Positions 6,139-60,287 of a stretch of DNA of 64,000 nt are shown here, in pieces. The position numbers and the translations under genes were made by a program. The notes below the pieces were generated by a model, which saw only the letters and a program-made list of their open reading frames with translations, was not told the DNA's origin and did no database searches. Origin of the DNA: Spirochaetia bacterium (GTDB lineage Bacteria > Spirochaetota > Spirochaetia > SZUA-6 > Bin103); assembly GCA_965215345.1 (NCBI GenBank), contig CBDCDL010000001.1:448251-512250 (forward strand), read 5' to 3'. How positions within the stretch are numbered: position 1 is the first letter of the stretch; every line of letters starts with the position of its first letter.

Positions 6139-6600
6139 CTACTGCAGTATGGATTCGAGCAACGTGTTGACCACGGAGTCTGAGTCTGTTGTGAACTCCC
6201 CACTGGTTTCCTCGGCGCCATCACCCTCGCCGCAGGATGTCAACAAATATCGAACTGGCGTGCCTTCGGGAGGAATAACCAACATCAGCTCCTTACCGCT
6301 TACACGATCCCATTCCAACTCTATACCACCGTCGGCCATGGGAGCAACGAAGGGTTCGCCCGCCTGGGAAAAGATGTGTCTATCTATCGCGACCAATATG
6401 CGGGTGCATTTCCTTACTGAGGAGCGAGCAATAGCTACAGAGCCGTAGCCATCCCAGTCGGGCTTCAGGTCAGCCAGGAGCTTCAACCGTTCTGCAAGTT
6501 CAGGGTGAGACCTTCGTAGAGACGATCTATCGTGGAAAGGTTCGAACAAGGAGAAAGGTTCGAGCAAGGAGTCTACAGCGTTCTTTCGGAAGACGTTCAA
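6139..6600 (-). CDS. Orphan hypothetical protein in a lower-GC islet
   Basis: A 153-aa ORF with protein-like composition and no recognisable motif. Local GC is clearly lower than the flanks. Confidence 0.4.
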   Translation of the reverse strand: MNVFRKNAVDSLLEPFSLFEPFHDRSSLRRSHPELAERLKLLADLKPDWDGYGSVAIARSSVRKCTRILVAIDRHIFSQAGEPFVAPMADGGIELEWDRVSGKELMLVIPPEGTPVRYLLTSCGEGDGAEETSGEFTTDSDSVVNTLLESILQ

Positions 6601-6907: not shown

Positions 6908-8482
6908 TTGTCGCCGGAAGGGACAACCTCCTATGGTCAGCACATGACTGACGGCCTGACGGGCATCGGCGCGCACGCATTCCGGCCCGGCGAGTGGCGG
7001 GACGAAGGACAGGGGCGGGAGACGCTGCGCACCCGCGAAGCGCGCGCCGCGTGGAACCCGCTGATCGATTGGGAGGAAGTCCATCCGGGCAACCGGGGGG
7101 TCACCCGCGACGGCCGCTACGAGCTGTTCGACGCGCCGGTCGGAGTGCGCCTGGCGGTGGAGCCGGCCTGCAAGTCGGCGGCGCTGATCCGCTCCGACCC
7201 CGCGGTGGAAGGCGGCGGCGGGCTGCACAACGTGCTCGCCTGGCACGACGGCGACTACCACATCCTGTACGGCTCCTTCCCGCCGGACGGCAGTTCCGCG
7301 CTGCGGTACGCGCGCTCGGCCGACGGCTATCGCTTCGAGAAGACGCCGGTGGGCGGCAGGGCCGACAACGTCACCGGCGGGCCGGCCCACTGCGGGATGT
7401 TCATCGACCCGACCGCCGGGCCGGCCGAGCGCTTCAAGGCGATGCGGATGGCCGGCGGCTACTTCGATCCCGACACGAACGAGCTGCTGCCGTCAGGCGA
7501 GTGGCAGAAACGCATGGCGGCGGCCGACTACGCGGGCGCCGGCTACGACGGCCCGCGCATCGTCAACCGCAACTGGCTGGAGGGGTGGACCTCTCCGGAC
7601 GGACTGCAGTGGACGGTGATCGACGAGCCGCTGGCCGACATGCCGGCCGACGGCGGCATCGCTCCGGGTTACGACGCGGCGACCGGCTGCTACTTCGCCT
7701 TCGTGCGTCCCGGCGGCACCGGCCGCCGCAGCATCGGCATCACCAAGACGGCCGACTTCCGCCGCTGGCCGCTGTCGCGGCTGGTGCTCACCGCCGATCC
7801 GCAGGACCCGCCGGACACCTCGTTCTACGGCATGTACTACTTCCCCTATCCCGGCCGGGACGACCTGCACGTGGGCGCGGTGCAGGTCTACCACCAGATC
7901 GGCGACGACGGCGACGCGCAGCTCGCCTTCAGCCGCGACGGCCTGTACTGGACGCGGCCCGAGCGCCGCCCGGCCATCCCGGTGGGGCCGCCCGGCAGCG
8001 ACGAGGCCGGCATCGCCTGGCCGTGGGGCGTCGGGCTGATCACCCTGCCGGACGGCTGGTGGGCGGTGCCCTACGACGCCGGCGCCTGGCTGCACAACGC
8101 CGGCGACACGATGCCGCGCGCCAACGGGGTCATCCGCTGGGCGCGCTGGCGCCCGCACCGGCTGGCCGGCATCGACGCGGCGACGGAGGGCCGCTTCACC
8201 ATCCCCACGATCACCCGCTCGGGCGGGCCGCTGCGCCTCAACTACCGCTGCCGGGCGGGCGGCTGGATCAGGGTCGAGCTGATCCGCTCGATCCCCTCCC
8301 GCCTGAACCCTGACGTGAGGGGACTCGACGGCTACACGTTCGAGGCGTGCGATCCCCTGACCGGCGACGAAGCCGACCGGGTGGTGACCTGGAACGGTCA
8401 GAGCGACCTGGACGCCGCCGGCTCCACCGTGGTGATCCGCATCAGGATGTTCGCCGCCACGCTGTTCGCTTACCGGGTATGA
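6908..8482 (+). CDS. Beta-propeller glycoside-hydrolase-like protein, paralog 1 (GH43/GH32/GH130-clan-like)
   Basis: Repeated S/T-x-DG-x-x-W blade motifs (SADGYRF, TSPDGLQWT, SRDGLYWT). It is paralogous to the genes at 8479, 23613 and 25120. The true start may be the ATG at 6944. Confidence 0.55.
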   Translation: MSPEGTTSYGQHMTDGLTGIGAHAFRPGEWRDEGQGRETLRTREARAAWNPLIDWEEVHPGNRGVTRDGRYELFDAPVGVRLAVEPACKSAALIRSDPAVEGGGGLHNVLAWHDGDYHILYGSFPPDGSSALRYARSADGYRFEKTPVGGRADNVTGGPAHCGMFIDPTAGPAERFKAMRMAGGYFDPDTNELLPSGEWQKRMAAADYAGAGYDGPRIVNRNWLEGWTSPDGLQWTVIDEPLADMPADGGIAPGYDAATGCYFAFVRPGGTGRRSIGITKTADFRRWPLSRLVLTADPQDPPDTSFYGMYYFPYPGRDDLHVGAVQVYHQIGDDGDAQLAFSRDGLYWTRPERRPAIPVGPPGSDEAGIAWPWGVGLITLPDGWWAVPYDAGAWLHNAGDTMPRANGVIRWARWRPHRLAGIDAATEGRFTIPTITRSGGPLRLNYRCRAGGWIRVELIRSIPSRLNPDVRGLDGYTFEACDPLTGDEADRVVTWNGQSDLDAAGSTVVIRIRMFAATLFAYRV

Positions 8483-9663: not shown

Positions 9664-10136
9664 GCACGGTGGCCACAGGCCTCTGGCACTTCAGCTACAC
9701 GGTCCGCGACCTGGACCGCAGCATCGACTTCTACTGCCGGCTGATCGGCATGGAGCTCGTCCACCGGCAACGGGGGGCCAACCCCTACACGGCGCGCCTG
9801 GTGGCGTACGCGGATGCGGACATCGACGTGGCGATGCTGCGCATCCCCAACTGTCCGGTGGACGTGAGCGGCCACCACCTGGAGCTGGTGCAGTACCTCC
9901 ACCCGGCGGGTGCGCCGATCGACACCGCCACCAACCGGCCGGGCGTGGCGCACCTGGCATTCATGGTCGACGACATCCACGCGATGTACGACCGGCTGGT
10001 CGCCGAGGGGGTGCGCTTCAAGGGCGAACCGGTGGCGATCGAGGAAGGTCGCAACAAGGGTGGCTTCGCCGTCTACTTCAACGACTTCGACGGCATCCCG
10101 CTGGAGTTGCTGCAGCCCCCGCCGAGCGCGCGGTGA
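9660..10136 (+). CDS. VOC (glyoxalase/bleomycin-resistance/dioxygenase) family protein
   Basis: ATGA overlap with the upstream gene. Blocks such as GLWHFSYTVRDLDRSIDFY...GVAHLAFMVDDIHAMYDRLVAEGVRF fit the vicinal oxygen chelate fold. Confidence 0.7.
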   Translation: MSTVATGLWHFSYTVRDLDRSIDFYCRLIGMELVHRQRGANPYTARLVAYADADIDVAMLRIPNCPVDVSGHHLELVQYLHPAGAPIDTATNRPGVAHLAFMVDDIHAMYDRLVAEGVRFKGEPVAIEEGRNKGGFAVYFNDFDGIPLELLQPPPSAR

Positions 10137-21014: not shown

Positions 21015-21461
21015 CTATTGTAGCGCTATGACGTCGCCGACATCCGGTACTATTCGCGAATAGAGATCAGGAACGCCTTCCACTTCTCGATGCCAAGCGC
21101 CCCAAGGTGCCTTTTCCTGCACGTATCCGTTGACTTCAGTTACATAGAAATGGTCTTGAGCCAGGAAGATCTTGAAGTTCACGATCTCTTGCTGATCCCA
21201 TCTGAGCCTCAAAAGTCCATGCCGATCGGGGGTTTTTGTCGTGTTGGTGATGGATGCGATGAAGGACAAATCCGTCACTGGTTCGACCTCGTACTGTATG
21301 CTCGGGGGAACATCTTCGTTGTACAGCAGCTCCGTGAGGCTCTCGATCCAGTGTATGATGACGTCGTTCGAGTCGCCCCCCTCGGCCGAATCATGATCGT
21401 CCGCCGACGCCAACGTAGAAGTCACTATCAGAACGAAACAGGCAATCGTTACCCGCAACAT
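21015..21461 (-). CDS. Secreted hypothetical protein in a lower-GC islet
   Basis: Signal peptide MLRVTIACFVLIVTSTLASA. Local GC is noticeably lower than the flanks. Confidence 0.4.
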   Translation of the reverse strand: MLRVTIACFVLIVTSTLASADDHDSAEGGDSNDVIIHWIESLTELLYNEDVPPSIQYEVEPVTDLSFIASITNTTKTPDRHGLLRLRWDQQEIVNFKIFLAQDHFYVTEVNGYVQEKAPWGAWHREVEGVPDLYSRIVPDVGDVIALQ

Positions 21462-21565
21462 CGTGCTGCTCCAGCGCAAGGATGGCAAACGGCAGAATGA
21501 GTCGTCAACCGGGCTCTCGACGTATGAATCTGTCCGATCTTTCGTGCTGAGCACCACCGGATCAG

Positions 21566-22486
21566 TCATTCCAGCGTCTCGCTCAGCACGCCGTTCGGAC
21601 CCACCAGCAGGACTTCCCCGGATGCGAGTTCGTCCTCCGCGAACTGCAACGCCCTGCCGGGCTCGATCGCCGCGACGGTCGCGTTGTCCGTCAGCGTCTC
21701 GCCGGCCAGCCGTTCCCAGATCACCTCGACGCTCCGCCGTGCGGTCCAGCGCTCATCGTCTTCCCCCTCTACGAAGACGGCGGTCCCCGACCGGCGGACG
21801 GGATCGTGCGCGCCGTCGGTCGTGAGGACGAGTCTGCCTTCGCGCGGCGTGTGCACGAGGTGGCGCTCAGCGAGGATTCCTTCCGGTATGCCGATCGCTT
21901 CGATCAGGCTGTTGTCCGGCTCGGTCGGCTGGTACGGTTCGGGCGGGGTTGCTCCCCTCGCCAAGCGGTCGAGCACTTCGGTATGGCCGGCGTCGGTGTC
22001 ATCGGTGGTGAGGCATCGGAACGGGCGCTCGGGCTCGATCAGGTGCGCCCGCGTGTCACCGGTGTGGGCGAGCATCCCGCTCCGGCGTTCCCAGACCGCG
22101 GCGGTCAGGGTCGTCCCGCCCCGTCCCTTGAGCGCCTCCAGCACCTCCCGTTGCGCGCGCAACACGGCTTCCGCGAGCACGTCGCGGGGCGTGTCGTGCT
22201 CGCCGGACAGGCAGGTCTCGACGACGATTCGCACCGTGTGGCGGCTCGCCCAGCCGCCGTCCTCCATGCCGCCCATGCCGTCCGCAGCCACCACGGCACA
22301 GCGCGGGGAGCGGTAGGTTCCGCGGCGCCAGAGCAGCACCGCGCCGCAGTCCTGCTGCTCCTCGCGCGGGCCCTGCTGCATGCCGAGCGCCATCGCGCCG
22401 TCGGCGCCCGCGTGGATCGCCCCGTCCTCATAGTCGGCGAGGCTGAACGCGTTCAGGATTCGTTCGCGCACGTCAGCCGGCCCCAC
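21566..22486 (-). CDS. PP2C-family Ser/Thr protein phosphatase
   Basis: The DGMGG motif and other PP2C metal-binding blocks. Confidence 0.65.
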   Translation of the reverse strand: MGPADVRERILNAFSLADYEDGAIHAGADGAMALGMQQGPREEQQDCGAVLLWRRGTYRSPRCAVVAADGMGGMEDGGWASRHTVRIVVETCLSGEHDTPRDVLAEAVLRAQREVLEALKGRGGTTLTAAVWERRSGMLAHTGDTRAHLIEPERPFRCLTTDDTDAGHTEVLDRLARGATPPEPYQPTEPDNSLIEAIGIPEGILAERHLVHTPREGRLVLTTDGAHDPVRRSGTAVFVEGEDDERWTARRSVEVIWERLAGETLTDNATVAAIEPGRALQFAEDELASGEVLLVGPNGVLSETLE

Positions 22487-27436: not shown

Positions 27437-28354
27437 ATGCAACAGATGAAGGATTCGAAATTGACGCGAATCGGAGTGTTCTATGACGGAAGTTACTTCT
27501 CACATGTGAGCAACTATTACTGCTACGACCACCAGCGGAAGGCGCGCATCAGCATTTCCGGCCTGCACGATTTCATACGGGAGGAAGTCGCGAAGAACGA
27601 GCAGGCAGACGCTCGCTATTGCCAGATCGTGGATGCGCATTACTTTCGGGCGCGGATGTCCGCCGCTGACGCCCAGGAACGGGACGCCCTGTATGGTGAA
27701 CGGGTCTTTGAGGACGTTCTCATCAACGCCGGGGTTACGACCCACTTCCTGCCAACCACGTCGCGCGGGGAAAAGGGCGTCGACGTCTGGCTGGCCCTCG
27801 AAGCGTTCGACCTCGCCATCCACAAGCAGTTCAATGTCGTCGTTCTGGTTGCCGGAGACGGTGACTACGTGCCGCTGGTTCGTAAGCTCAATACGCTTGG
27901 GGCGAGAACGATGGTCACCGCATGGGACTTCAAGTTCAGCGATGGCAGCGGCCAGGAGCGGGAGACCAGAACGTCCCAGTTCTTGATCAACGAGGTCACC
28001 TACGCGATCATGATGGACCGCATCATCGATGACCGGTCGCGCAGCCAGGACCGTATAGTCAACAACCTGTTCTTGGCCGCGGCCCAACCGCCTGCTCCGC
28101 GCCGTGTGCAGCCCGCGGCGGCCATCTCGGATGAGCTGCAAGCGGGTGTCATACAGAACATCAAGGATGGCTACGGATTCATAGCTCCCGATTCCGGCGG
28201 CGAGAACCTGTTTTTCCACTGGACGGGAGTGAGAAACGAAGACTTCGAGGAGCTGCGGATCGGCGAACTGGTCCATTTCATCGTCGGCAGCAATGACCGT
28301 GGCCCGTGCGCGGTCGACGTGAGGCGAGTGGAGAACACGAATGCGGGAAGGTAG
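27437..28354 (+). CDS. NYN-domain (LabA-like RNase) protein fused to a C-terminal cold-shock domain
   Basis: NYN blocks (IGVFYDGSY..., EKGVDVWLALEAFD, VVVLVAGDGDYVPLV). The C-terminus carries the S1-like CSD motif GVIQNIKDGYGFIAPDSGGENLFFHWTGV. A good AAGGAG ribosome-binding site precedes the start. Confidence 0.7.
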   Translation: MQQMKDSKLTRIGVFYDGSYFSHVSNYYCYDHQRKARISISGLHDFIREEVAKNEQADARYCQIVDAHYFRARMSAADAQERDALYGERVFEDVLINAGVTTHFLPTTSRGEKGVDVWLALEAFDLAIHKQFNVVVLVAGDGDYVPLVRKLNTLGARTMVTAWDFKFSDGSGQERETRTSQFLINEVTYAIMMDRIIDDRSRSQDRIVNNLFLAAAQPPAPRRVQPAAAISDELQAGVIQNIKDGYGFIAPDSGGENLFFHWTGVRNEDFEELRIGELVHFIVGSNDRGPCAVDVRRVENTNAGR

Positions 28355-28748
28355 GCGAAGGGGACTGCGCGTGACCTACTCAGTCATCTCCGCGACCGCT
28401 CGCAGTAACGGGACTCCGGCGCATGTCGGTGGTGCAAATGGTGTCGCCGAGCGCCTCGCGGTGCAGGTCGTCGGTCGCTCGTGCAGGAGGTGTGGATGCG
28501 AGCGTCGGCTTTGACGTGACGTTGGTCTGCGGGGCCGTGGAACTGTTCGGTTTCCTCGGTCAGGCTGAGCGCCCAGCACGACGTCGGACGGGATCGTCAC
28601 CGCCGTCGTGGACAAAGGTGACCAACCATGCTGCTTTCTCATCGACGGACCACTACCGCGGCACTCCCAATAGCCTGGATGGGTGCGCCGCGCATGCCAG
28701 GTGAGTTGAGAGCCCGATTGCCGGGATGTGGGCCCCGGTGCGTGTCGC

Positions 28749-29213
28749 TTACTCGATCAGCTCCACGATGGCGCCCAGCTCGGCGACGAATCGCTCGTGC
28801 GCCGAGCGGAACGCCGCCAGGGTGGTAGGAATTCGATTCTGCACAATCTGAATGCGGTCCGGGTTGAGCCGCGTGCCGTATAGGTTGCGGAACATGTGGC
28901 GAAACGCGCGCAGCTCATGGATGTCCTGTGCGAGCGATCGATCCAGGAGGCGGGGCCGCAGGTCCTCGATCTCGATCGTCATGCGTTCCACGAGCTCGCG
29001 GTGCCATACCGACGGCGGCAAGTCATTCTCGAAGAACCGGGAGACCCGGAGGAAGTAGGACTCCAGCGCGTTGTAGATGTTGTGAATGGTGTAGGCCAGC
29101 GCCGCCCAGTCCAACTCATCGGTCGCTCCGTGCCGGATGCGGCCGTCGGCTTTCAGGTTGGTCTCGGCAAGGTCGCCGAGAACCTCGGTATCACCGTGCA
29201 ACTCAGCGATCAA
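28749..29213 (-). CDS. HEPN-fold protein (NTase substrate-binding, HI0074-like), partner of the upstream NTase
   Basis: An all-helical ~150-aa protein immediately downstream of a minimal NTase. The family call is tentative. Confidence 0.5.
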   Translation of the reverse strand: MIAELHGDTEVLGDLAETNLKADGRIRHGATDELDWAALAYTIHNIYNALESYFLRVSRFFENDLPPSVWHRELVERMTIEIEDLRPRLLDRSLAQDIHELRAFRHMFRNLYGTRLNPDRIQIVQNRIPTTLAAFRSAHERFVAELGAIVELIE

Positions 29214-29237
29214 TATTGCGACGCGCGCTGCTCTCGT

Positions 29238-29600
29238 TCATACATGAGCCTGCCGTCGATGTTCGACAGCCCGGCTGATCACCGGACTGGCGTTCGGTAG
29301 ATCGACGACGTCGACCTTGAACGGGCTGTCGAGCGCTATCGAGACCAGACGGAGATACTGTGGTGAGTCAACGGCCAGATCCACGTCCGGCTCCCGGTTG
29401 CCCAGGTCGCCGGTAGCCAGCGAACCGAAGAGCACGACCGTGCGGAGGTCGGGGTCCGCCTCAAGGAAGCACTTCGTGAGCCGCTCGGCTTCCGCGAGGC
29501 CGGCCGCTCGCCATTCTCGGCGCATGTGTTCGAGATGAGCCGATCTCTTCGGCGCTCTCGCTGCTTTGAGCCCTTCGGCTACACCACGAAGGAATCGCAT
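29238..29600 (-). CDS. Minimal nucleotidyltransferase (MNT-like)
   Basis: The LFGSLATGDLGNREPDVDLAV NTase motif. The longer ORF extension to 29738 is derived from a fucosidase gene fragment and is probably not translated. Confidence 0.6.
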   Translation of the reverse strand: MRFLRGVAEGLKAARAPKRSAHLEHMRREWRAAGLAEAERLTKCFLEADPDLRTVVLFGSLATGDLGNREPDVDLAVDSPQYLRLVSIALDSPFKVDVVDLPNASPVISRAVEHRRQAHV

Positions 29601-29639
29601 TCCGTTCCTCGTCCACAGCCGGGAGAACGTAGTCGGCTG

Positions 29640-29860
29640 AGACACCGCGTGTCGAGAGTGTCCGCCTTCGATCGAACGCGCTACGCGACGACATTCGTCG
29701 CCGAAGTCCAGGCGGATCACCATCACGGTGCCGGTCATTCGGTTGACCGCTCGCTTCCGTCGTGTAGCAGCGTCGCGCGCTCAGGAGCGACCCGCAGCGG
29801 ATTGAGAGTCAGGCCGGTGCTCTGCGGGGCCGTCGAGCATCTGCCGCACCAATGATTCCG
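29640..29860 (-). pseudogene. Decayed duplicate of the 3' end of the GH29 fucosidase gene
   Basis: About 200 bp is a clear but diverged copy of 30795-31010, with an internal deletion. It encodes ...STGLTLNPLRVAPERATLL...MTGTVMVIRLDFG, against ...STGLILKPLRIAPDRATLL...MAGTVMVIRLEFG in the intact gene. Confidence 0.5.
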
Positions 29861-30344
29861 GCTCAACAAGCACGTCCGAGACACGCTTCCCTAAAGTTTC
29901 AGCGATTGCGGCTAATGTCTTGACCCTGGGCGTCTGTTCGCCGTTCTCGATCCGTACCAGCGTAACGCGTCCAATGTTAGCCGCTCGTGCTAGCTGCTCT
30001 TGAGTCAATCCCGCCGAGTCTCGCAACGTCCTGAGCCGCTCGCCGAGGGTCCGCCTGCCGTGCATGGCTATCGCCTCAACGGTGGACCGGTAGGATTCGT
30101 CACAGTAGTGGCGTGCGAAATCCCAGGGAATCTCAATGTGTTCACCGTTGACCGTGTTGAGAATCATCTGGTATGGGTTCGGCAATTCAAGACTGGACAG
30201 GTCCGTAGCATCACTGATCTCGTCGATATCGCTGTAGGGTATCATGCCTTTGCACCCATCGGCGAAGCTCAACTGGACTCCATTGGCCACTATGTTGGCG
30301 ACCATCATCATCCGATCGGCGTTCTTTACCAAAACCGCATCCAT
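29781..30344 (-). CDS. DUF2442 domain protein with a C-terminal XRE-type HTH
   Basis: N-terminal DUF2442-like region plus the HTH LTQEQLARAANIGRVTLVRIENG. It is paired with an upstream DUF4160 gene. Confidence 0.6.
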   Translation of the reverse strand: MDAVLVKNADRMMMVANIVANGVQLSFADGCKGMIPYSDIDEISDATDLSSLELPNPYQMILNTVNGEHIEIPWDFARHYCDESYRSTVEAIAMHGRRTLGERLRTLRDSAGLTQEQLARAANIGRVTLVRIENGEQTPRVKTLAAIAETLGKRVSDVLVEPESLVRQMLDGPAEHRPDSQSAAGRS

Positions 30345-53275: not shown

Positions 53276-54295
53276 GTGCCAGCAGCCGGTCGGGTCGTCG
53301 TCGTCGGGAGCATCAATACCGACCTGGTCGCCTACGTCGAGCGTCTGCCGGAGCCCGGAGAGACCGTGGGCGGCGCACGGTTTGCGGAGACCGCCGGCGG
53401 CAAGGGTGCGAACCAGGCGGTAGCGGCAGCGCGCGCCGGCGCGTCCTGCGTGCTGCATGGCGCAGTGGGCGATGACGCGTACGGCACGGCGCGTGTCGAT
53501 GATCTTGCCGCGGCCGGTGTGGCAACCGAGCACGTGGCGGTGCTCCCGGAGGAACGCTCGGGGGTGGCGCTGATCTACGTCGACGCGCGCGGCGAGAACC
53601 AGATCGCCGTGGCGCCCGGCGCCAACGGCGCCTTTCGGTTGGAGGCGGAGGCGTTCTGCGCCGGAGTGGGACCGAACGACGTCGTGCTGCTGCAGAACGA
53701 GGTCGCCCCGAGCGTGACGACGGCGGCGATCGCGCTGGCGCGCGACGGAGCGACGGTGATGTGGAACATCGCTCCCGCGTTGACGGCGGTCGGCGAGGCC
53801 GAACGGGCCGCCATCGTGCAGGTGGACTATCTGATCGTCAACGCGGGTGAGCTGGACGCGCTCATGGCGCGTCGGGCCGGGGAGTCGGCTACCGAGGCGG
53901 CGCGCCGGGCGGTCGCCGAGCTCGGCTGCCCGCGGGTGTTGGTGACACTCGGCGCCGACGGTGCGGTGCTGGCCGATGCTCGCGGCGTCCATCGACAGGC
54001 CGCAACATCCGTACAGGCGATCGACACGGTAGGGGCAGGCGACTGCTTCGCGGGCGTGTTCGCGGCGTCCATCGCGACCGGCCGGGAACCGATCGACGCG
54101 CTACGGCGGGCCGTCGCCGCGGCCGGTCTGTGCGTGACGCGTGAAGGGGCGCAGCGCGCCATGCCGTCGGACGAGGAGATTGTCCGCGCCACTACCCTGG
54201 CGGACGTGAGCCCGACGTCCGTGGGCCGCGTGCTGGCGCCACTGCGTCCCGGTGAAGACCTGCTCGCAGAGATGCTCGACGATGATCGGGATTGA
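53276..54295 (+). CDS. Ribokinase / PfkB-family carbohydrate kinase
   Basis: Motifs VVVVGSINTDLV, GGKGANQAVAAARAG and DTVGAGDCFAGV. GTG start with a GGGAG ribosome-binding site. Confidence 0.8.
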   Translation: MPAAGRVVVVGSINTDLVAYVERLPEPGETVGGARFAETAGGKGANQAVAAARAGASCVLHGAVGDDAYGTARVDDLAAAGVATEHVAVLPEERSGVALIYVDARGENQIAVAPGANGAFRLEAEAFCAGVGPNDVVLLQNEVAPSVTTAAIALARDGATVMWNIAPALTAVGEAERAAIVQVDYLIVNAGELDALMARRAGESATEAARRAVAELGCPRVLVTLGADGAVLADARGVHRQAATSVQAIDTVGAGDCFAGVFAASIATGREPIDALRRAVAAAGLCVTREGAQRAMPSDEEIVRATTLADVSPTSVGRVLAPLRPGEDLLAEMLDDDRD

Positions 54296-54488
54296 CACGA
54301 CGTTTCTCGTTCACCTTGAGATCCAGGAATCCGAAGCGCATGCAGCAGCGATGGACCTGGGTCGCAAGCGCCTGCTCGACACGACGCTGGCGGCCACGTA
54401 CTACGCGAACGGGATCACCACGATCGCGACGTCGAATACCCGTGACTATCGGGGGTTCGGCGTTTTCGACCTGGTCGAAATCCGGTAG
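54282..54488 (+). pseudogene. Remnant PIN-domain (VapC-like) ORF with an internal deletion
   Basis: It has only the N-terminal (MIGIDTTFLVHLEI) and C-terminal (ATSNTRDYRGF) PIN blocks in 68 aa. Confidence 0.3.
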
Positions 54489-54543
54489 CCTCGCGCCCGT
54501 GAACGCGTCCCAGTGGGTCGCGAGCGATGTCGCGTAGCGTGAC

Positions 54544-55704
54544 TCACCTGAGGTCCAACTCCTCCAGGGCCTCGCGCCAGTGCAGGCACAGGACGCCGTC
54601 AAGGAGCATGCGCGTCGGATCCCTGCTGATGCACAGCGCCAGCGGGTCGGAGAAGTCAGGAGTGAAGCGGGCGAGCTGTCGGACGTCCCGCTCATCGATA
54701 CGTTCGGACGACTTGATCTCGATCAGGGCCTCCGGCATGCCCGGGCGTTCGATCACCAAGTCGATCTCCACCCCGGCTCCCGTCCGAAGGTAGGAGAGCC
54801 TCCAGTCAGGGTAGCGATATCGCGACAGATGCAGGATCTGGGTGATGACGAAGTGCTCGAACGCCTTCCCGTACTCGTAGGTCCCGGTCCGGAGCGGCAC
54901 GTCGAGCGTTCGTTGCAGCGATCGTCTGACGCCGGTATCGAAGTAGTAGAACTTCGGATTGGCGCTCTGCTGCTTCCTGATCGAGCGGTGATGGGACGGC
55001 AGGAGAAAGCCGACCAGCGTGTCTTCCAGGATGCTGAAGTAGGAGATGACGCTCTTGGGATCCGCTCCCACGTCCCTGGCGATGTTGGCGTAGTTGACGA
55101 TCGCGCCATTCGATTGCGCGGCGACCTCCAGGAACTCCCGGAAAGGATCGAGCCTGCGGATGATCTGCTCGGCGACGATCTCCTCTTTCAGGTAGGTCAG
55201 GGCGTATGCCCGGAGGTACGCCCGTTTTTCTTCCGCGCTCTCCAATGAGTAGATCTTGGGCAAGGTCCCCCAACGCAAGGCGTCGTCGAGTTCGAACGCA
55301 TCCTGCAACTCGGGCACGGTGAGCGGGTAGAGGTTGTACACGAACGCCCGCCCGGCCAGGAGGTTCGACGCCCCGCGCCGGAGCTTTCTGCCGCTGGATC
55401 CGGTGAGCACGAACCGCCTGCCGGTGCTCTCGATCAGCCGGTGGGCCACGTCCAGGAGCCGTGGCACCCGCTGCACCTCGTCGATGAGGATCCACTCCAC
55501 CGATGCGGGGAGCGCTCTGACCTCGCTCTCCAACAAGCCCGGGCGTCTCCGGTACCGGTCCTCCATCTCCGGGTCCAACAGATCGACGTACATCGACGCG
55601 CTCGCGTCGAACGCATCCTGGATCCAGGTGGTCTTGCCCGTGCCGCGTGCGCCGAACAGGAAGAACGAGTTGCGTCGGCCGGCATCCAGAAGCCTGGGGA
55701 ACAT
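54544..55704 (-). CDS. AAA+ ATPase with a C-terminal DUF4143 domain
   Basis: Walker A (FGARGTGKTT) and Walker B (ILIDEVQ), in the typical AAA_14 + DUF4143 arrangement. Confidence 0.75.
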   Translation of the reverse strand: MFPRLLDAGRRNSFFLFGARGTGKTTWIQDAFDASASMYVDLLDPEMEDRYRRRPGLLESEVRALPASVEWILIDEVQRVPRLLDVAHRLIESTGRRFVLTGSSGRKLRRGASNLLAGRAFVYNLYPLTVPELQDAFELDDALRWGTLPKIYSLESAEEKRAYLRAYALTYLKEEIVAEQIIRRLDPFREFLEVAAQSNGAIVNYANIARDVGADPKSVISYFSILEDTLVGFLLPSHHRSIRKQQSANPKFYYFDTGVRRSLQRTLDVPLRTGTYEYGKAFEHFVITQILHLSRYRYPDWRLSYLRTGAGVEIDLVIERPGMPEALIEIKSSERIDERDVRQLARFTPDFSDPLALCISRDPTRMLLDGVLCLHWREALEELDLR

Positions 55705-55715
55705 GGCGAGATCCT

Positions 55716-57365: not shown

Positions 57366-57930
57366 ATGTCGGGCGGGAGAATTCCGGACGGGCCGTTGGT
57401 CACGTTCGAGGACATCGTCGATGCGCTGCGGCACGTGCAGGTCGGTCGCGGCGCGGTCGTCTACGCGCACAGCTCGCTCAGCAGCATGGGGTACGTGCCG
57501 GGCGGGGCGGCCCATGGTGGAAGAAAGCATCGCGGCGCTGCACCGGAATCCGGCCCGGTTCTTCGCGGACGGTGAGCGAAGCGATTACGTTCGCTGGTAT
57601 CGGAGCATCCCGTCCCTCCGACGACGCATCCAGGCGGGCGCGGCTCAGGTGCCGATCGCTCCGGCTTCCGAGTCGTCCGGATCGGAGCCCTGACCGTGAT
57701 CGGCGGTCCCGGCGAGCTGTTCGCTCAGACAGCGCTCGACATCAGGGCGGGCCACCCGCGGGACCGGACGGTCATCGCCGGACTGGTGAACGGCGACCTC
57801 CGCCACCCGCTGCGTACGCGCAGGGCGGCTACGAGGTGGCGCCGAGCGCCCGCTCCCGATTCGACCGGCGCGCCGAACCGATGATCAGGCAGGCGATCCG
57901 CCGGCTACTCGCGGCCGGCGAGTAGCGCTC
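57366..57930 (+). pseudogene. Decayed gene; the first frame resembles the N-terminus of AAC(3)-family aminoglycoside N-acetyltransferases and is followed by frameshifted pieces
   Basis: ...VTFEDIVDALRHVQVGRGAVVYAHSSLSSMGYVPGG... followed by frame changes. No intact long ORF remains. Confidence 0.3.
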
Positions 57931-57934
57931 TCAG

Positions 57935-58444
57935 TCAGGGCGCCACTCGACTGGCGAAACAGCCGGGGAGCGCTTTACCCACGTCCTCGACCGACACGAC
58001 GATGCAATCGGAAATGTACGTGCGCTTCCACGGCGTGTCCGCCTCCTGAGCCAGGCGATCTCGCAGACGGTCGGTCAGACCAGCCATCAACGGTGGCTGC
58101 AGCGAAAGGCGCTCGGTACCGATCACGACGACGTACCTCATCGGCTTCGTGTCCCGCGCCATGAGGTGAAGGAACCCGTAGGAGGTGCGGGCCTTGGGGG
58201 CCAGCTCCTCGTGCGTGAGCTCCTTCGATTTCATCTTCTTCACGAAATTCTGACGATTGGCGGCCGGTGCGTGCGCGGCGGACGGGTCCTTGACCTCCAC
58301 CGACACGAGCTCGTCTGCTCTTTCCGCTATGAAGTCGACCGGCGACACGCCCTTCGGGAAGGATGCGCCGGGGCGGTCGAAGTGTTCGGCGTGCCATTCA
58401 TCGCCAAACGCGAACCGAAGTTCTCCTTCCGCGAAGGGAGTCAT
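57935..58444 (-). CDS. Small PD-(D/E)xK-like protein, downstream partner of the ABC-type ATPase
   Basis: ...PVDFIAERADELVSVEVKD... fits a D...E-x-K motif. Its start overlaps the ATPase stop (ATGA). Confidence 0.45.
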   Translation of the reverse strand: MTPFAEGELRFAFGDEWHAEHFDRPGASFPKGVSPVDFIAERADELVSVEVKDPSAAHAPAANRQNFVKKMKSKELTHEELAPKARTSYGFLHLMARDTKPMRYVVVIGTERLSLQPPLMAGLTDRLRDRLAQEADTPWKRTYISDCIVVSVEDVGKALPGCFASRVAP

Positions 58445-59517
58445 CGGGCACGAGTCCCCAGCGAGCGCTCGATCTCGCGGTCATAGAGCGACGTGAACGC
58501 TTCGGCAATTGCGCTGTGTCCGAGCTTGAACGGCCGGTCGGCGGATTCGCAGCTCACCTCGCCTTCCGAGTCGCGATACAGCGCGTGAAAGCGAACTTCG
58601 TCGTCCTCCAGCATGAGCAGCTCCAATTCCTTCAGAACGGCGTACTCATGGGTGGCGATCAGGATCTGGACGCCCGACCGTTGAAGCTGCAGCAGGGCGT
58701 CGATGACCACGGTGAGAAGTTTCGGGTTGAGATGAGCTTCGGGTTCATCCCAGAATAGAACGGACCCCTCCGGCAAGGATCCGTTACGGATCAGGAGCCA
58801 CAGGAGTCCGAGCTTGCGCATCCCTTCCGCGAGCAGTGTGAACTCGATTTCGCGTTCCTCCGTCTTGAGAAAGAACTCCTCGTTTTCGACCGCGACATTA
58901 CCTCCGATCGCGTCCGCCAAGTCTACGAGGATTCGCGCGCGCGTGTCATCCAACCGTCCGCGCAAGGGCGGCAGACAGGAACGGTCGATGATGTCGGCGT
59001 AAACTTCCTCGAAATGGATCTCTCGATACGCGTAGAGTGAGCGGAATCCGGGAGCGTGTGCAAGCATCTCCGTGGCAGGAACGAAGACGCTCCTTGTATT
59101 CGTATTCGACCAACCAGCGTCGATGACTTCGACGAACTGCCGCAATTCGGCGAACACCGGGATGCGGATCCTCCGGTCTTCGCCGCAGACTTCCATGATT
59201 CCCGGGTGGTCGTCGCCCGGATGTCTCATCAACCGTCCAACGTCGTCCCCTGACGGCAGGAATATCTGTACCAGCTTGTCGTGAGCGGCAACCTCGGTCA
59301 AGGACTCAGGAGTCATTCTGGTGAATTCGCATGCTGCGTAGGCAACTTTCAGGAGGTGAGTCTTGCCGGTCCCGTTGGCTCCCACGAACACGTTCACGCC
59401 TGGGCCGATCTCCAGATCGAGTTTCTCGAACGCCGTGAATCGTTCGATACGAATGCGCGTCAGCGTGCGGTACGTACGCTTTGGTGGACGACCGGTTACC
59501 TGGGATTCATCGTGCAT
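58441..59517 (-). CDS. ABC/SMC-type (AAA_21-like, OLD-family-like) ATPase
   Basis: RecF-like N-terminus IERFTAFEKLDLEIGPGVNVFVGANGTGKTHLL. Walker B/D-loop LFWDEPEAHLNP and H-loop LIATHE. Local GC is lower than the flanks. Confidence 0.65.
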   Translation of the reverse strand: MHDESQVTGRPPKRTYRTLTRIRIERFTAFEKLDLEIGPGVNVFVGANGTGKTHLLKVAYAACEFTRMTPESLTEVAAHDKLVQIFLPSGDDVGRLMRHPGDDHPGIMEVCGEDRRIRIPVFAELRQFVEVIDAGWSNTNTRSVFVPATEMLAHAPGFRSLYAYREIHFEEVYADIIDRSCLPPLRGRLDDTRARILVDLADAIGGNVAVENEEFFLKTEEREIEFTLLAEGMRKLGLLWLLIRNGSLPEGSVLFWDEPEAHLNPKLLTVVIDALLQLQRSGVQILIATHEYAVLKELELLMLEDDEVRFHALYRDSEGEVSCESADRPFKLGHSAIAEAFTSLYDREIERSLGTRAR

Positions 59518-59633
59518 TCTGATGCCTCCGCGCGAAGTCGACGGAATCGGGACATTGCACGCGCTCGGCTGACCTTGACAACGATTCCCGTCGAAGTCGC
59601 TGCCCGGGTCGGATCGGAGGCATGGCCGCGCAA

Positions 59634-60287
59634 TCAGAAGTCGATGCCGCGCTGTGCCTTGATGCCGGCCTGGAACGGGTGCTTGACTTCGACCATCTCG
59701 CTCACCAGGTCGGCGTAGTCGATCAGTTCGGGCGGAGCGTCGCGGCCGGTCAGGATCACGTGCGTCCGGGACGAGCGAGCCTCCAGGCACTGCAGGACCT
59801 CGTCCGCCGGCAGGTAGTCGTAGCTCATCACCACGTTGATCTCGTCGAGGACGACCAGGTCGAGATCGCCCCCGGTGATCATCTCGCGCGCGATGGCGAG
59901 TCCCGAGCGCGCGGTGGCGATGTCCGCCTCCCGGTCCTGGGTGTCCCAGGTGAATCCCGAGCCGGTGGTGCGCCACTCCAGCAGGTCCGGGAAGCGGCTG
60001 AAGAACTGGCGCTCGCCGGTCTTCCATGCGCCCTTGATGAACTGGACGACGCCGACGCGCTTGCCCCAGCCGAGGGCGCGCGACACGACGCCGAAGGCGG
60101 CGCTCGACTTGCCCTTGCCGTTGCCGGTGTGAACCAGCACCAGCCCGTGGTCCGGATTCGACGCACGGGCGACCCTGGCTCGCTGCTCGGCCTGCAGCTC
60201 GCGCATGCGCTCGGCGTGCTCGCGGTCCGTCGGGGCAGCGTGCCGAGTCGCTCCGCTCACTCTTCGAGTGAGGTTCGCTCCGCTCAC
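59634..60287 (-). CDS. cobO: Cob(I)yrinic acid a,c-diamide adenosyltransferase (CobO/BtuR type)
   Basis: The P-loop-like VLVHTGNGKGKSSAAFGVVSRALGWGKRVGVVQFIKG is characteristic of CobA/CobO. Confidence 0.85.
   Translation of the reverse strand: MSGANLTRRVSGATRHAAPTDREHAERMRELQAEQRARVARASNPDHGLVLVHTGNGKGKSSAAFGVVSRALGWGKRVGVVQFIKGAWKTGERQFFSRFPDLLEWRTTGSGFTWDTQDREADIATARSGLAIAREMITGGDLDLVVLDEINVVMSYDYLPADEVLQCLEARSSRTHVILTGRDAPPELIDYADLVSEMVEVKHPFQAGIKAQRGIDF

Follow-up and report, generated by a model that had tools for sequence, protein, structure and literature searches.

Within the window, by which we mean the whole 64,000-nucleotide stretch of DNA that was analyzed, two genes lie on the minus strand as a compact pair: gene A (58441..59517), whose ORF encodes 358 amino acids, and gene B (57935..58444), whose ORF encodes 169 amino acids. 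The stop codon of A and the start codon of B are shared in an ATGA overlap (58441..58444, minus strand), which bears out the translational coupling proposed in the preliminary description of this DNA, and an identical 4-bp overlap recurs in the related loci L007, L008, and L013-L016, whose A genes terminate at 10004 or 8004 and whose B genes begin at 10001 or 8001. The mechanical ORF of A extends to 60027, a start that would overlap cobO, so the ATG at 59517 was taken as the start of the protein; a Shine-Dalgarno sequence, GGAGG, lies 7 nt 5' of this ATG, at 59525-59529. The Shine-Dalgarno sequence is carried by a 116-bp noncoding region (59518..59633, minus strand) that presumably holds the promoter, and in which a scan that is uninformative for this organism found no sigma-70 consensus. 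The same scan, which covered terminators as well, returned just two intragenic promoter-like matches in the cassette and zero terminators.

The lower GC content to which the preliminary description had drawn attention is evident in both measures of composition, with GC falling to 0.57-0.63 over the pair against ~0.70 in the flanks, and GC3 being 0.71 in A and 0.78 in B against 0.90-0.94 in the neighboring genes. On one side of the pair is cobO (PF02572, E 9.6e-66), and on the other is the heavily decayed remnant of an Antibiotic_NAT (PF02522) gene, so that the placement between cobO and a decayed acetyltransferase-like gene was read correctly at the outset. The remnant itself has no Pfam match, and it is identified solely by DNA homology to the Antibiotic_NAT genes that occupy the same position in relatives; the L007, L018, and L020 genes greatly exceed the remnant in length, and that of L017 is a fragment as well. 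Beyond these two neighbors the surroundings include a GH4 gene and metabolic genes, and inspection of the neighboring genes placed the pair neither inside an Hma locus nor beside a canonical defense island, while the PADLOC candidate PDC-S01 is ~2.2 kb away. B and the NAT remnant are convergent, and between their ends is an inverted repeat with perfect 9-bp arms, GCTACTCGC-cggcc-GCGAGTAGC (57904..57926), which spans the right-hand junction of the cassette described below; it has no T-run and for that reason was not called by the terminator scan, and it is a candidate for either a terminator or a recombination joint. A tRNA scan of the window returned zero genes, indicating that the pair is not on a tRNA-linked island, and an Rfam scan of the cassette gave one chance match (E 0.64) and no retron or other noncoding RNA.

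The A protein is an ABC-type ATPase of the Rad50/SMC/PtuA-like kind, and is presumed to be the sensor or regulator of the pair. In Pfam it matches AAA_21 (E 9.8e-20), as well as AAA_15, and its AlphaFold2 model (pLDDT 81.5) is an ABC head domain with a PS1-PS2 hairpin and two inserts. The best structural matches of the model in Foldseek are PtuA (2.3e-13, TM ~0.5), Rad50, and the SMC head, and the best sequence match in the PDB is also PtuA (2.6e-5). All the motifs quoted in the preliminary description are present, and 30 homologs show no variation at their key residues. The motifs comprise IERFTAFEKLDLEIG at residues 24-38; the Walker A P-loop GANGTGKT at residues 46-53 (59359..59382, minus strand), with G46, N48, G49, T50, G51, and K52 invariant; LFWDEPEAHLNP at residues 254-265; and the H-loop ATHE at residues 288-291 (58645..58656, minus strand), with T289 and H290 invariant. 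Walker B with its catalytic glutamate, VLFWDEPE, occupies residues 253-260 (58738..58761, minus strand), where W256, D257, P259, and E260 are invariant and E258 is found in at least 90% of the 30 homologs. The ABC-ATPase fold is thus accompanied by an intact Walker A, Walker B, and H-loop. A further motif, LAEGMRK, at residues 229-235 (58813..58833, minus strand), in which A230, E231, G232, R234, and K235 are invariant in the same homologs, would by its position in the model correspond to the ABC signature helix. The first of the two inserts, Insert 1, spans residues 66-142 (59092..59322, minus strand) and in the model runs from helix H1 to strand S2.

The B protein is a stand-alone PD-(D/E)xK protein with a predicted restriction-endonuclease-like fold, and is presumed to be the nuclease effector. 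The D...E-x-K motif recognized at the outset is in a β-hairpin formed by strands 38-42 and 45-52 of the model and reads P35-V36-D37 ... E50-V51-K52 (58289..58342, minus strand); V36, D37, E50, and K52 are invariant in 33 homologs. An α/β core with D ... (D/E)xK on adjacent strands, the hallmark of the PD-(D/E)xK superfamily, is found in B, and the nuclease fold on which the original proposal depended is the one predicted. Sequence searches with Pfam, NCBIfam, and PHROGs gave no usable family, returning faint YraN/UPF0102-like matches (E 0.03-0.13), and a search of the PDB with the B profile gave zero matches at E≤10, so that the family has no solved structure. The Pfam NERD family (PF08378) did not match B at E≤1 and was matched by just one of the 33 members of the B family, at E 0.067. 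Neither Pfam nor PADLOC gave an HNH, TOPRIM, or DUF4435 match for B, in agreement with the earlier statement that the effector is none of these. No relative of B was found in IMG/VR viral contigs, which hence provide no evidence for carriage by phage.

Co-occurrence of the two genes was the check that the preliminary description had asked for, and A is directly 5' of B in 87/87 informative loci from several phyla. This count is made up of 5/5 loci in reference genomes (Spirochaetia, Vicinamibacterales, and Rhodothermales), where A is followed by B on the same strand, 6/6 further contexts, and 76/76 informative metagenome loci; the scan of reference-genome contigs used a single-protein query and returned six loci, while the metagenome scan used an alignment as query. 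Such obligate linkage independently supports a two-gene unit.

Both proteins belong to a family that has already been catalogued. With the models of PADLOC-DB v2, A matches the HEC-02A model PDLC04213 with E 4.5e-111 (residues 19-354, profile positions 3-335 of 337), and B matches the HEC-02B model PDLC04220 with E 1.5e-49 (residues 1-166, profile positions 1-166 of 172), eight other HEC-02B models also matching B. These E values, together with the strict co-occurrence, put the pair beyond chance, and the adjacent, co-oriented arrangement of A followed by B is that of HEC-02. The suggestion that the effector might represent an unassigned family consequently does not stand: B has no Pfam family, yet A and B fall within HEC-02A and HEC-02B. 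HEC-02 is Hma-embedded candidate 02, which consists of an ABC ATPase and a NERD-like PD-(D/E)xK protein (Payne et al., bioRxiv 10.1101/2024.01.29.577857). Embedding in an Hma (helicase-methylase-ATPase) locus was the route of discovery and is not a requirement, as candidates like HEC-02 are common outside hma loci, where independent systems are expected to be mostly found (bioRxiv 2024.01.29.577857). The tested representative is from Dickeya dianthicola NCPPB 3534 (WP_024108366.1 and WP_024108365.1); in Escherichia coli, at least two phages plaqued orders of magnitude less efficiently in its presence, and defense required both genes (bioRxiv 2024.01.29.577857). This validation comes from one preprint, in which a lone representative was assayed in a heterologous host (bioRxiv 2024.01.29.577857), and later mechanistic work on HEC-02 was not found in the literature searched. 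The A protein is 33% identical to the Dickeya HEC-02A over 314 amino acids (E 3e-48). In the case of B, identity to the Dickeya HEC-02B is 24% with a BLASTP E value of 1e-4, and hhalign gives a probability of 90.4% (E 1.4e-6), with the D37 ... E50-V-K52 motif aligned to D43 ... E56-V-K58 of the Dickeya protein. The candidate defense system of the preliminary description, an ABC-type ATPase with a small PD-(D/E)xK protein, accordingly agrees with the predicted fold, the motifs, and the PADLOC models, and we consider that the pair is very probably an anti-phage defense cassette of the HEC-02 family. The family is already catalogued and validated in the laboratory and the window pair is an ordinary additional copy; a routine PADLOC run would label the locus HEC-02, and it carries little weight as a discovery.

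Comparison with related genomes shows that the pair is a presence/absence unit of 1,723 bp (57911..59633, minus strand), comprising the 116-bp upstream region, A, B, and 24 bp downstream. The left junction, 59634, is the stop codon of cobO. In the syntenic L017 locus, where cobO is 94% identical, blastn homology ends at 59634 and resumes at 57910 with nothing between the two junctions, and the cassette is precisely absent. In L018 the junctions at 59634 and 57918 enclose ~6.5 kb of other cargo, and the HEC-02 site holds other cargo in L018 and L019, while in L020 an orthologous cassette is broken, with A split and B reduced to 30 residues. The same junctions are thus found empty, with HEC-02, with a broken HEC-02, or with a methyltransferase cassette, making the site a natural defense hotspot. 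Judged by its atypical GC3 and its presence/absence polymorphism, the cassette is accessory and horizontally acquired, and the site is a strain-variable genomic hotspot. Inspection of the junctions gave no target-site duplication and no att-like repeats, so transposition and site-specific integration are not supported, and it is more likely that the conserved flanks allowed the cassette to be exchanged by homologous recombination.

In the likeliest mechanism, by analogy with Septu PtuAB, PARIS AriAB, and Gabija, the A protein would oligomerize in an ATP-dependent manner, bind B, and hold it inactive; the two proteins would be in physical contact, and A would be the sensor. The variable inserts of A, chiefly Insert 1, might sense a cue of infection, which could be, for example, a protein of the phage or nucleic acid in an abnormal structure. 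B would then be freed or activated, and could cut nucleic acid through a metal site formed by D37, E50, and K52, with the outcome that either the phage DNA would be destroyed or the infected cell shut down. We regard such a mechanism, in which a sensor ATPase activates a nuclease, as having slightly better than even chances of applying to A and B. An alternative is that the pair is a toxin-antitoxin-like or addiction module, with B acting as the toxin, a nuclease, and A serving as an ATP-dependent antitoxin or regulator; such a module would be retained because its loss does harm, and would not be dedicated to phage defense in this organism. Indeed, the Pfam title of the top domain of A is "AAA_21, putative AbiEii toxin, Type IV TA system," the two genes are small and tightly coupled, BrnT and PIN toxin-antitoxin genes are present in the same neighborhood in relatives, and the cassette has been kept in two lineages that are ~9% diverged. 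However, the homologous Dickeya pair cuts plaquing by phages, and at the induction level that was applied toxicity was reported for HEC-03 and HEC-04 but not for HEC-02 (bioRxiv 2024.01.29.577857). The clean loss in L017 and the decay in L020 also indicate that the cassette is not strongly addictive. Toxin-antitoxin behavior and abortive-infection defense are moreover compatible, which brings this explanation closer to a sub-mechanism of HEC-02 defense than to a genuine competitor of it, and as a separate account of the pair we consider it unlikely.

It is also conceivable that the cassette is a nonfunctional remnant that is decaying as its acetyltransferase neighbor has done. This would be in keeping with the heavy decay of the adjoining NAT gene, the broken cassette in L020, the lack of a recognizable promoter, and the first 18 codons of A, which relative to L007 have a dN of 0.23 and a dS of 0. 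On the other hand, the A and B ORFs are intact and full length on the family profiles, every catalytic residue is retained, and neither the ATGA overlap nor the Shine-Dalgarno sequence has been lost. The comparison with L007 gives dN/dS ratios of 0.25 (A) and 0.33 (B), values that signify purifying selection, and on the strength of these ratios the cassette is probably still functional. We therefore think that decay is a very improbable description of the window pair. The least plausible explanation is that the pair is a housekeeping factor for DNA repair or chromosome maintenance, with a RecF/SbcC/Rad50-type ATPase and a nuclease resembling SbcCD or Mre11-Rad50, for although the N-terminal 40 to 60 residues of A match SMC_N, RecF, and Rad50 models, Rad50 and SMC heads are among its top structural matches, and metabolic genes surround the pair, the bit scores are far below the cut-offs (30.9 versus 172 for RecF TIGR00611, 25 versus 1087 for Rad50, and 31 versus 40 for SMC_N), the model of the 358-residue A has no coiled-coil insertion, the pair is missing from L017 and replaced by cargo in others, its GC3 is atypical, and its distribution is patchy over unrelated phyla with a different gene context in each, all of which leaves this explanation with almost no likelihood and shows that A is not the RecF/SbcC fragment that the preliminary description had named as a possible refutation.

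Insert 1 is the hypervariable segment of A: its mean pairwise identity is 39.5%, compared with 76-79% for the ATPase core. Against the syntenic L007 copy, codons 61-145 of A have 49% amino acid identity, as opposed to about 90% for the core, and nucleotide identity falls to 53-70% over 59350-59084, while it is 90-98% in the flanks. The dS relative to L007 is 0.65-1.2 over A codons 61-358, compared with 0.19 for B and 0.14-0.18 in the flanks, and this elevation indicates allelic replacement by recombination. The hypervariable Insert 1 is a candidate for the surface that recognizes the trigger. A more speculative joint reading, which we put forward tentatively and consider to have less than even chances, is that Insert 1 is a trigger module that is re-assorted among strains by homologous recombination inside a fixed chromosomal hotspot while B stays constant, and that B represents a non-NERD clade of the superfamily whose N-terminal β unit docks on A. 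Were this the case, the natural allele series formed by the window, L007, and P0103-P0112 would map phage specificity, which would add fresh mechanistic detail on a known system and not a new type of system. The divergence of Insert 1 and the signs of allelic replacement provide a concrete place in which to seek the trigger specificity of HEC-02.

The preliminary description had likened the pair to PARIS, Septu, Gabija, and OLD-family systems, and this likeness holds to the extent that PtuA is the closest fold to A, but membership in any of these systems does not, as their models match A over short stretches. In Septu, which pairs PtuA with the HNH protein PtuB and includes the effectors of type I-A retrons, an ABC-type ATPase is likewise combined with a separate small nuclease, and PtuA, as the closest solved structure to A, is likely to be a model of how an ATPase scaffold controls a nuclease. 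The Septu effector is an HNH protein, whereas B is a PD-(D/E)xK protein; A is ~100-200 residues shorter than PtuA; and there is no retron reverse transcriptase or noncoding RNA near the window pair. Assignment to Septu was rejected with an NCBIfam PtuA score of 33.8 bits, where the cut-off is 500, PADLOC PtuA models that cover ~40 N-terminal residues of A (19-60, E ~1e-11), and no HNH match for B. PARIS similarly comprises two genes, with AriA as the ABC ATPase sensor and the DUF4435/TOPRIM protein AriB as the released nuclease effector. Release of AriB is triggered by Ocr, which serves as an analogy only for the window pair. AriA is the strongest non-HEC PADLOC match of A (E 1.1e-21), but the match is partial (residues 199-295) and B has no AriB match, and PARIS was rejected. 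Gabija and OLD were rejected as well: A, at 358 residues, has no TOPRIM domain, its GajA and OLD matches are to the N-terminal P-loop region, and no helicase gene that could correspond to GajB adjoins the pair.

In the case of the NERD (PF08378) and wider PD-(D/E)xK superfamily, B has the canonical PD...ExK on a β-hairpin but no significant PF08378 sequence match, and it leads with an N-terminal three-stranded β unit (strands 2-6, 9-13, and 18-21 of the model) where the usual start in the superfamily is a helix. The legend to Fig. S6C of the HEC-02 preprint describes a superposition of HEC-02B on a NERD model (bioRxiv 2024.01.29.577857). Finally, the nearest comparator is the Dickeya HEC-02 itself, which shares with the window pair the order of a 340-360-amino acid ABC ATPase followed by a ~170-amino acid PD-(D/E)xK/NERD-like protein, the Walker A, Walker B, and H-loop of A, and the N-terminal "MT..EGxLxFxF" and D...(E)xK motif of B. 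At 33% and 24% identity, and with PDLC04213 and PDLC04220 as its best models, the window pair belongs to a separate subfamily; its host is a high-GC uncultured bacterium, whereas that of the Dickeya pair is an enterobacterium, and it stands by itself, with cobO on one side, a decayed acetyltransferase gene on the other, and no Hma system around it. HEC-02, validated from the Dickeya copy alone, is now extended to a distant high-GC environmental lineage.

The locus very probably is a defence cassette of the HEC-02 family, made up of A, an ORF for a 358-aa ABC-type ATPase (58441 to 59517, minus strand), and B, an ORF for a 169-aa PD-(D/E)xK protein (57935 to 58444, minus strand), whose stop and start codons overlap as ATGA at 58441 to 58444, which couples their translation. 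With Pfam, A shows only generic ABC/SMC-type ATPase domains (AAA_21, 9.8e-20, and AAA_15) and B has no match. The PADLOC search suggested in the preliminary description returned full-length matches to HEC-02 models for both proteins, with A matching HEC-02A (PDLC04213, E 4.5e-111) and B matching HEC-02B (PDLC04220, E 1.5e-49). Matches to the PADLOC-DB AriA, PtuA, GajA, NsnB and AbiLi models are partial only and far weaker than those to HEC-02, in keeping with the earlier view that the pair lies outside Septu, Gabija, PARIS and OLD, and matches to NCBIfam MAD3, PtuA, RecF and Rad50 are confined to the P-loop region, with scores far below the cut-offs. The pair had been described as an ATPase plus PD-(D/E)xK candidate defence system whose effector might belong to an unassigned family; the first part of that description stands, and the second does not, since HEC-02 is already in PADLOC-DB v2. 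One further PADLOC-DB model, PDLC04146, is labelled HEC-02B and matches ATPase A (E 2.9e-59, residues 19-316, profile positions 2-308 of 344) instead of the small protein, which looks like a database labelling quirk.

HEC-02 is one of nine "Hma-embedded candidates" of Payne et al., who describe it as pairing an ABC ATPase with a NERD-like PD-(D/E)xK protein (bioRxiv 10.1101/2024.01.29.577857). With one representative, the pair WP_024108366.1 and WP_024108365.1 from Dickeya dianthicola NCPPB 3534, cloned into E. coli MG1655 deltaRM, plaquing dropped by orders of magnitude for at least two phages, and phage defence in E. coli needed both genes (bioRxiv 10.1101/2024.01.29.577857, Table S2 and Fig. 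S3 legend). The window A is 33% identical to Dickeya HEC-02A over 314 residues (E 3e-48), and the window B is 24% identical to Dickeya HEC-02B (BLASTP E 1e-4), with an hhalign probability of 90% (E 1.4e-6) when the B-family profile is compared with Dickeya B; the N-terminal MT..EGxLxFxF is aligned between the two B proteins, as are D37/E50-V-K52 of the window protein and D43/E56-V-K58 of the Dickeya protein. Together with the PADLOC matches, this homology to the tested pair identifies the window pair as a diverged but clear HEC-02 member. As the family is already catalogued in PADLOC-DB v2 and validated through the Dickeya representative, what is new here is this copy only, which, judged from its sequence, is a new member of a distant HEC-02 subfamily in a high-GC bacterium. 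A literature search found no later mechanistic work on HEC-02.

The likely start of A is the ATG at 59517, because GGAGG lies 7 nt upstream of it and the mechanical ORF, which reaches 60027, would overlap cobO (59634 to 60206 or 60287). The first 18 codons (59464-59517) show dN 0.23 and dS 0 against L007, a syntenic locus of a relative; the 18 residues are modelled as disordered (pLDDT <50) and are missing from many homologs of 338-342 aa, and there is no alternative ATG, GTG or TTG start near codon 19. GC content is 0.57-0.63 across 58000-59600 and about 0.70 on both sides, and GC3 is 0.71 in A and 0.78 in B, against 0.90-0.94 in cobO and the DUF4340, ABC auxiliary and GH4 genes. Pfam assigns the flanking genes to CobA_CobO_BtuR (E 9.6e-66), Glyco_hydro_4 and DUF4340. 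The acetyltransferase-like remnant (57366-57925, plus strand) has ORFs with no Pfam match of their own and shares DNA homology with parts of the relatives' Antibiotic_NAT genes (PF02522, AAC(3)-like) at the same position; all that is left of homology to the L007 gene (1,971 bp) is three fragments, with frame breaks and with internal deletions of about 890 and 530 bp. The NAT gene calls in the relatives' loci L007, L018 and L020, at 597-662 aa, are unusually long for that family. The right cassette junction is spanned by a perfect inverted repeat of 9 bp with a loop of 5 nt (GCTACTCGC cggcc GCGAGTAGC, 57904-57926), located where B and the NAT remnant converge; it has no T-tract, and similar, non-identical hairpins occur at the same place in L007, L018 and L020. 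The pair's ORFs, ATGA overlap, motifs, lower-GC patch and flanks are thus as first described.

Relatives with near-identical flanks differ at this site, which makes the cassette accessory. L007 (cobO 95% identical at the amino acid level) carries the pair and is collinear with the window, the DNA being 91-93% identical, and L017 (cobO 94%) has an empty site at its position 7600, where homology to the window breaks off at 59634, the stop codon of cobO, and restarts at 57910, so that 57911-59633 (1,723 bp) is absent. In L018 (cobO 91%, as in L019) about 6.5 kb of other cargo (L018 7628-14124, junctions 59634 and 57918) comprises a Type II DNA methyltransferase (PADLOC MTase_II, 1.6e-56) and four ORFs without a family match; L019 has the left junction and the cargo genes in common with L018, plus a DDE transposase. 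L020 (cobO 90%) holds a broken HEC-02 (L020 7743-10701), with a split in A near residue 81, no more of B than residues 139-168, and an inserted, unrelated 432-aa ORF of no known family. The junction between the cobO stop codon and the 3' end of the NAT gene is a cargo hotspot. The cassette flanks have no target-site duplication or att-like repeat and the 64-kb window has no tRNA gene; exchange of cassettes is likeliest to proceed by homologous recombination in the conserved flanks. Less probably, the pair may be a toxin-antitoxin or addiction module, a reading that overlaps with an abortive-infection mechanism, though the clean loss of the cassette in L017 speaks against strong addiction. A second variable slot (54190-55715, GC 0.64) lies about 2.2 kb away and is present in L017 and absent from L007, where its flanks are about 90 bp apart; its gene at 54544 to 55704 (minus strand) encodes an AAA_14 plus DUF4143 ATPase, with a match in PADLOC to the single-gene candidate PDC-S01 (E 9.6e-56), and in L017 the slot also carries BrnT and PIN toxin-antitoxin genes. 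Elsewhere in the window, a crude GC3-based gene map places ORFs at 6139-6600, 21015-21569 and 27437-30344 at 0.60-0.77, against a typical value of about 0.9, and these may have been horizontally acquired.

The co-occurrence check that had been proposed for the pair showed the linkage to be obligate: a co-oriented A homolog sits directly upstream of B in every informative locus, namely in 5/5 reference-genome loci (Spirochaetia, three Vicinamibacterales and Rhodothermales), in 6 further distinct contexts including Phycisphaerae, and in all 76 informative metagenome loci (B 36-71% identical), a count that leaves aside 4 additional loci ending at contig ends. The genomic contexts all differ and most are metabolic, with a few adjoining other defence-type genes (AAA_15 plus DUF4276, HEC-01-like, in L013 and L014; NB-ARC/CHAT/WD40 in L011 and L012). 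One context, seen in L013 (1-2497) and L014 (767-2622), is Bacteroidota-like, with Por_Secre_tail neighbours. Here additional AAA_15/AAA_21 ATPase genes, one with a DUF4276 gene after it in the HEC-01 architecture, occur no more than about 4 kb from the HEC-02 pair, which gives the site the look of a small group of ABC-ATPase defence pairs. No relative of B was found among IMG/VR viral contigs.

Between the window and L007, cobO and the DUF4340, ABC auxiliary and GH4 genes are 94-96% identical in amino acids (dS 0.14-0.18, dN/dS 0.12-0.21), B is 88% identical (dS 0.19, dN/dS 0.33) and A is 73% identical (dS 0.72, dN/dS 0.25). The ratios for A and B indicate purifying selection and hence that neither is a pseudogene, which, with intact ORFs and catalytic motifs, makes a dead remnant of a defence system unlikely. 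Nucleotide identity in A drops to 53-70% at 59350-59084; dS is 0.30 in codons 19-60, 1.2 in codons 61-145 (where identity is 49%) and 0.65-0.95 in codons 146-358. Because dS in A is far above that of the flanks, the pattern points to recombinational replacement of most of A, from about codon 61 on, by a divergent allele with B retained, rather than to positive selection alone. Within A, conservation among 30 family members is lowest in Insert 1, with a mean pairwise identity of 39.5%, compared with 65% for S2 plus Insert 2 (residues 143-228) and 76-79% for the nucleotide-binding core. This hypervariability fits the suggestion of the HEC-02 authors that the ATPase inserts set trigger specificity (bioRxiv 10.1101/2024.01.29.577857). 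The hotspot polymorphism and the apparent allelic replacement of Insert 1 are useful details and not surprising ones.

The motifs quoted in the preliminary description are all present, those of A, on the minus strand, being IERFTAFEKLDLEIG (residues 24-38), GANGTGKT (46-53), LFWDEPEAHLNP (254-265) and ATHE (288-291), and the catalytic residues are invariant across 30 homologs. The model of A (pLDDT 81.5) has the ABC topology described in the HEC-02 paper, with a PS1-PS2 hairpin (20-37) followed by S1 and Walker A, helix H1 (52-65), Insert 1 (about 66-142, window 59092-59322), S2 (143-146), Insert 2 (about 147-228), a signature-like helix (231-244), Walker B (253-260) and the H-loop (290). Among solved structures, A is closest to PtuA of Septu and retron I-A and to the heads of Rad50 and SMC (E from about 1e-13 to 1e-11, TM about 0.5). 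A housekeeping RecF/SbcC/Rad50 factor is excluded by the sub-threshold RecF and Rad50 model scores, the lack of a coiled coil in the model, the presence/absence polymorphism among relatives and the atypical base composition.

The motif of B is P35-V-D37 ... E50-V-K52, and D37, E50 and K52 are invariant among homologs, as are P54, S55, K84, R86 and H93. In the model, strand 38-42 follows D37 and strand 45-52 contains both E50 and K52, the canonical hairpin placement. The family is of moderate size, with 642 cluster representatives found at E<=1e-3, and nearly all of these are stand-alone proteins about 160-190 aa long. B has no match to PF08378 (NERD), and among 33 relatives one matches (E 0.067), so that B is placed in the PD-(D/E)xK superfamily, the term "NERD-like" coming solely from the structural comparison of the HEC-02 authors (bioRxiv 10.1101/2024.01.29.577857).

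We lean slightly towards a mechanism in which A is a sensor ATPase that activates nuclease B: A would form an ATP-dependent oligomer that keeps B inactive, its inserts would detect an infection cue, and B, once activated, would cleave nucleic acid, which may be phage DNA, host DNA or RNA, through its D37/E50/K52 site, giving direct or abortive defence. The analogues for such a mechanism are Septu PtuAB, PARIS AriAB and Gabija.
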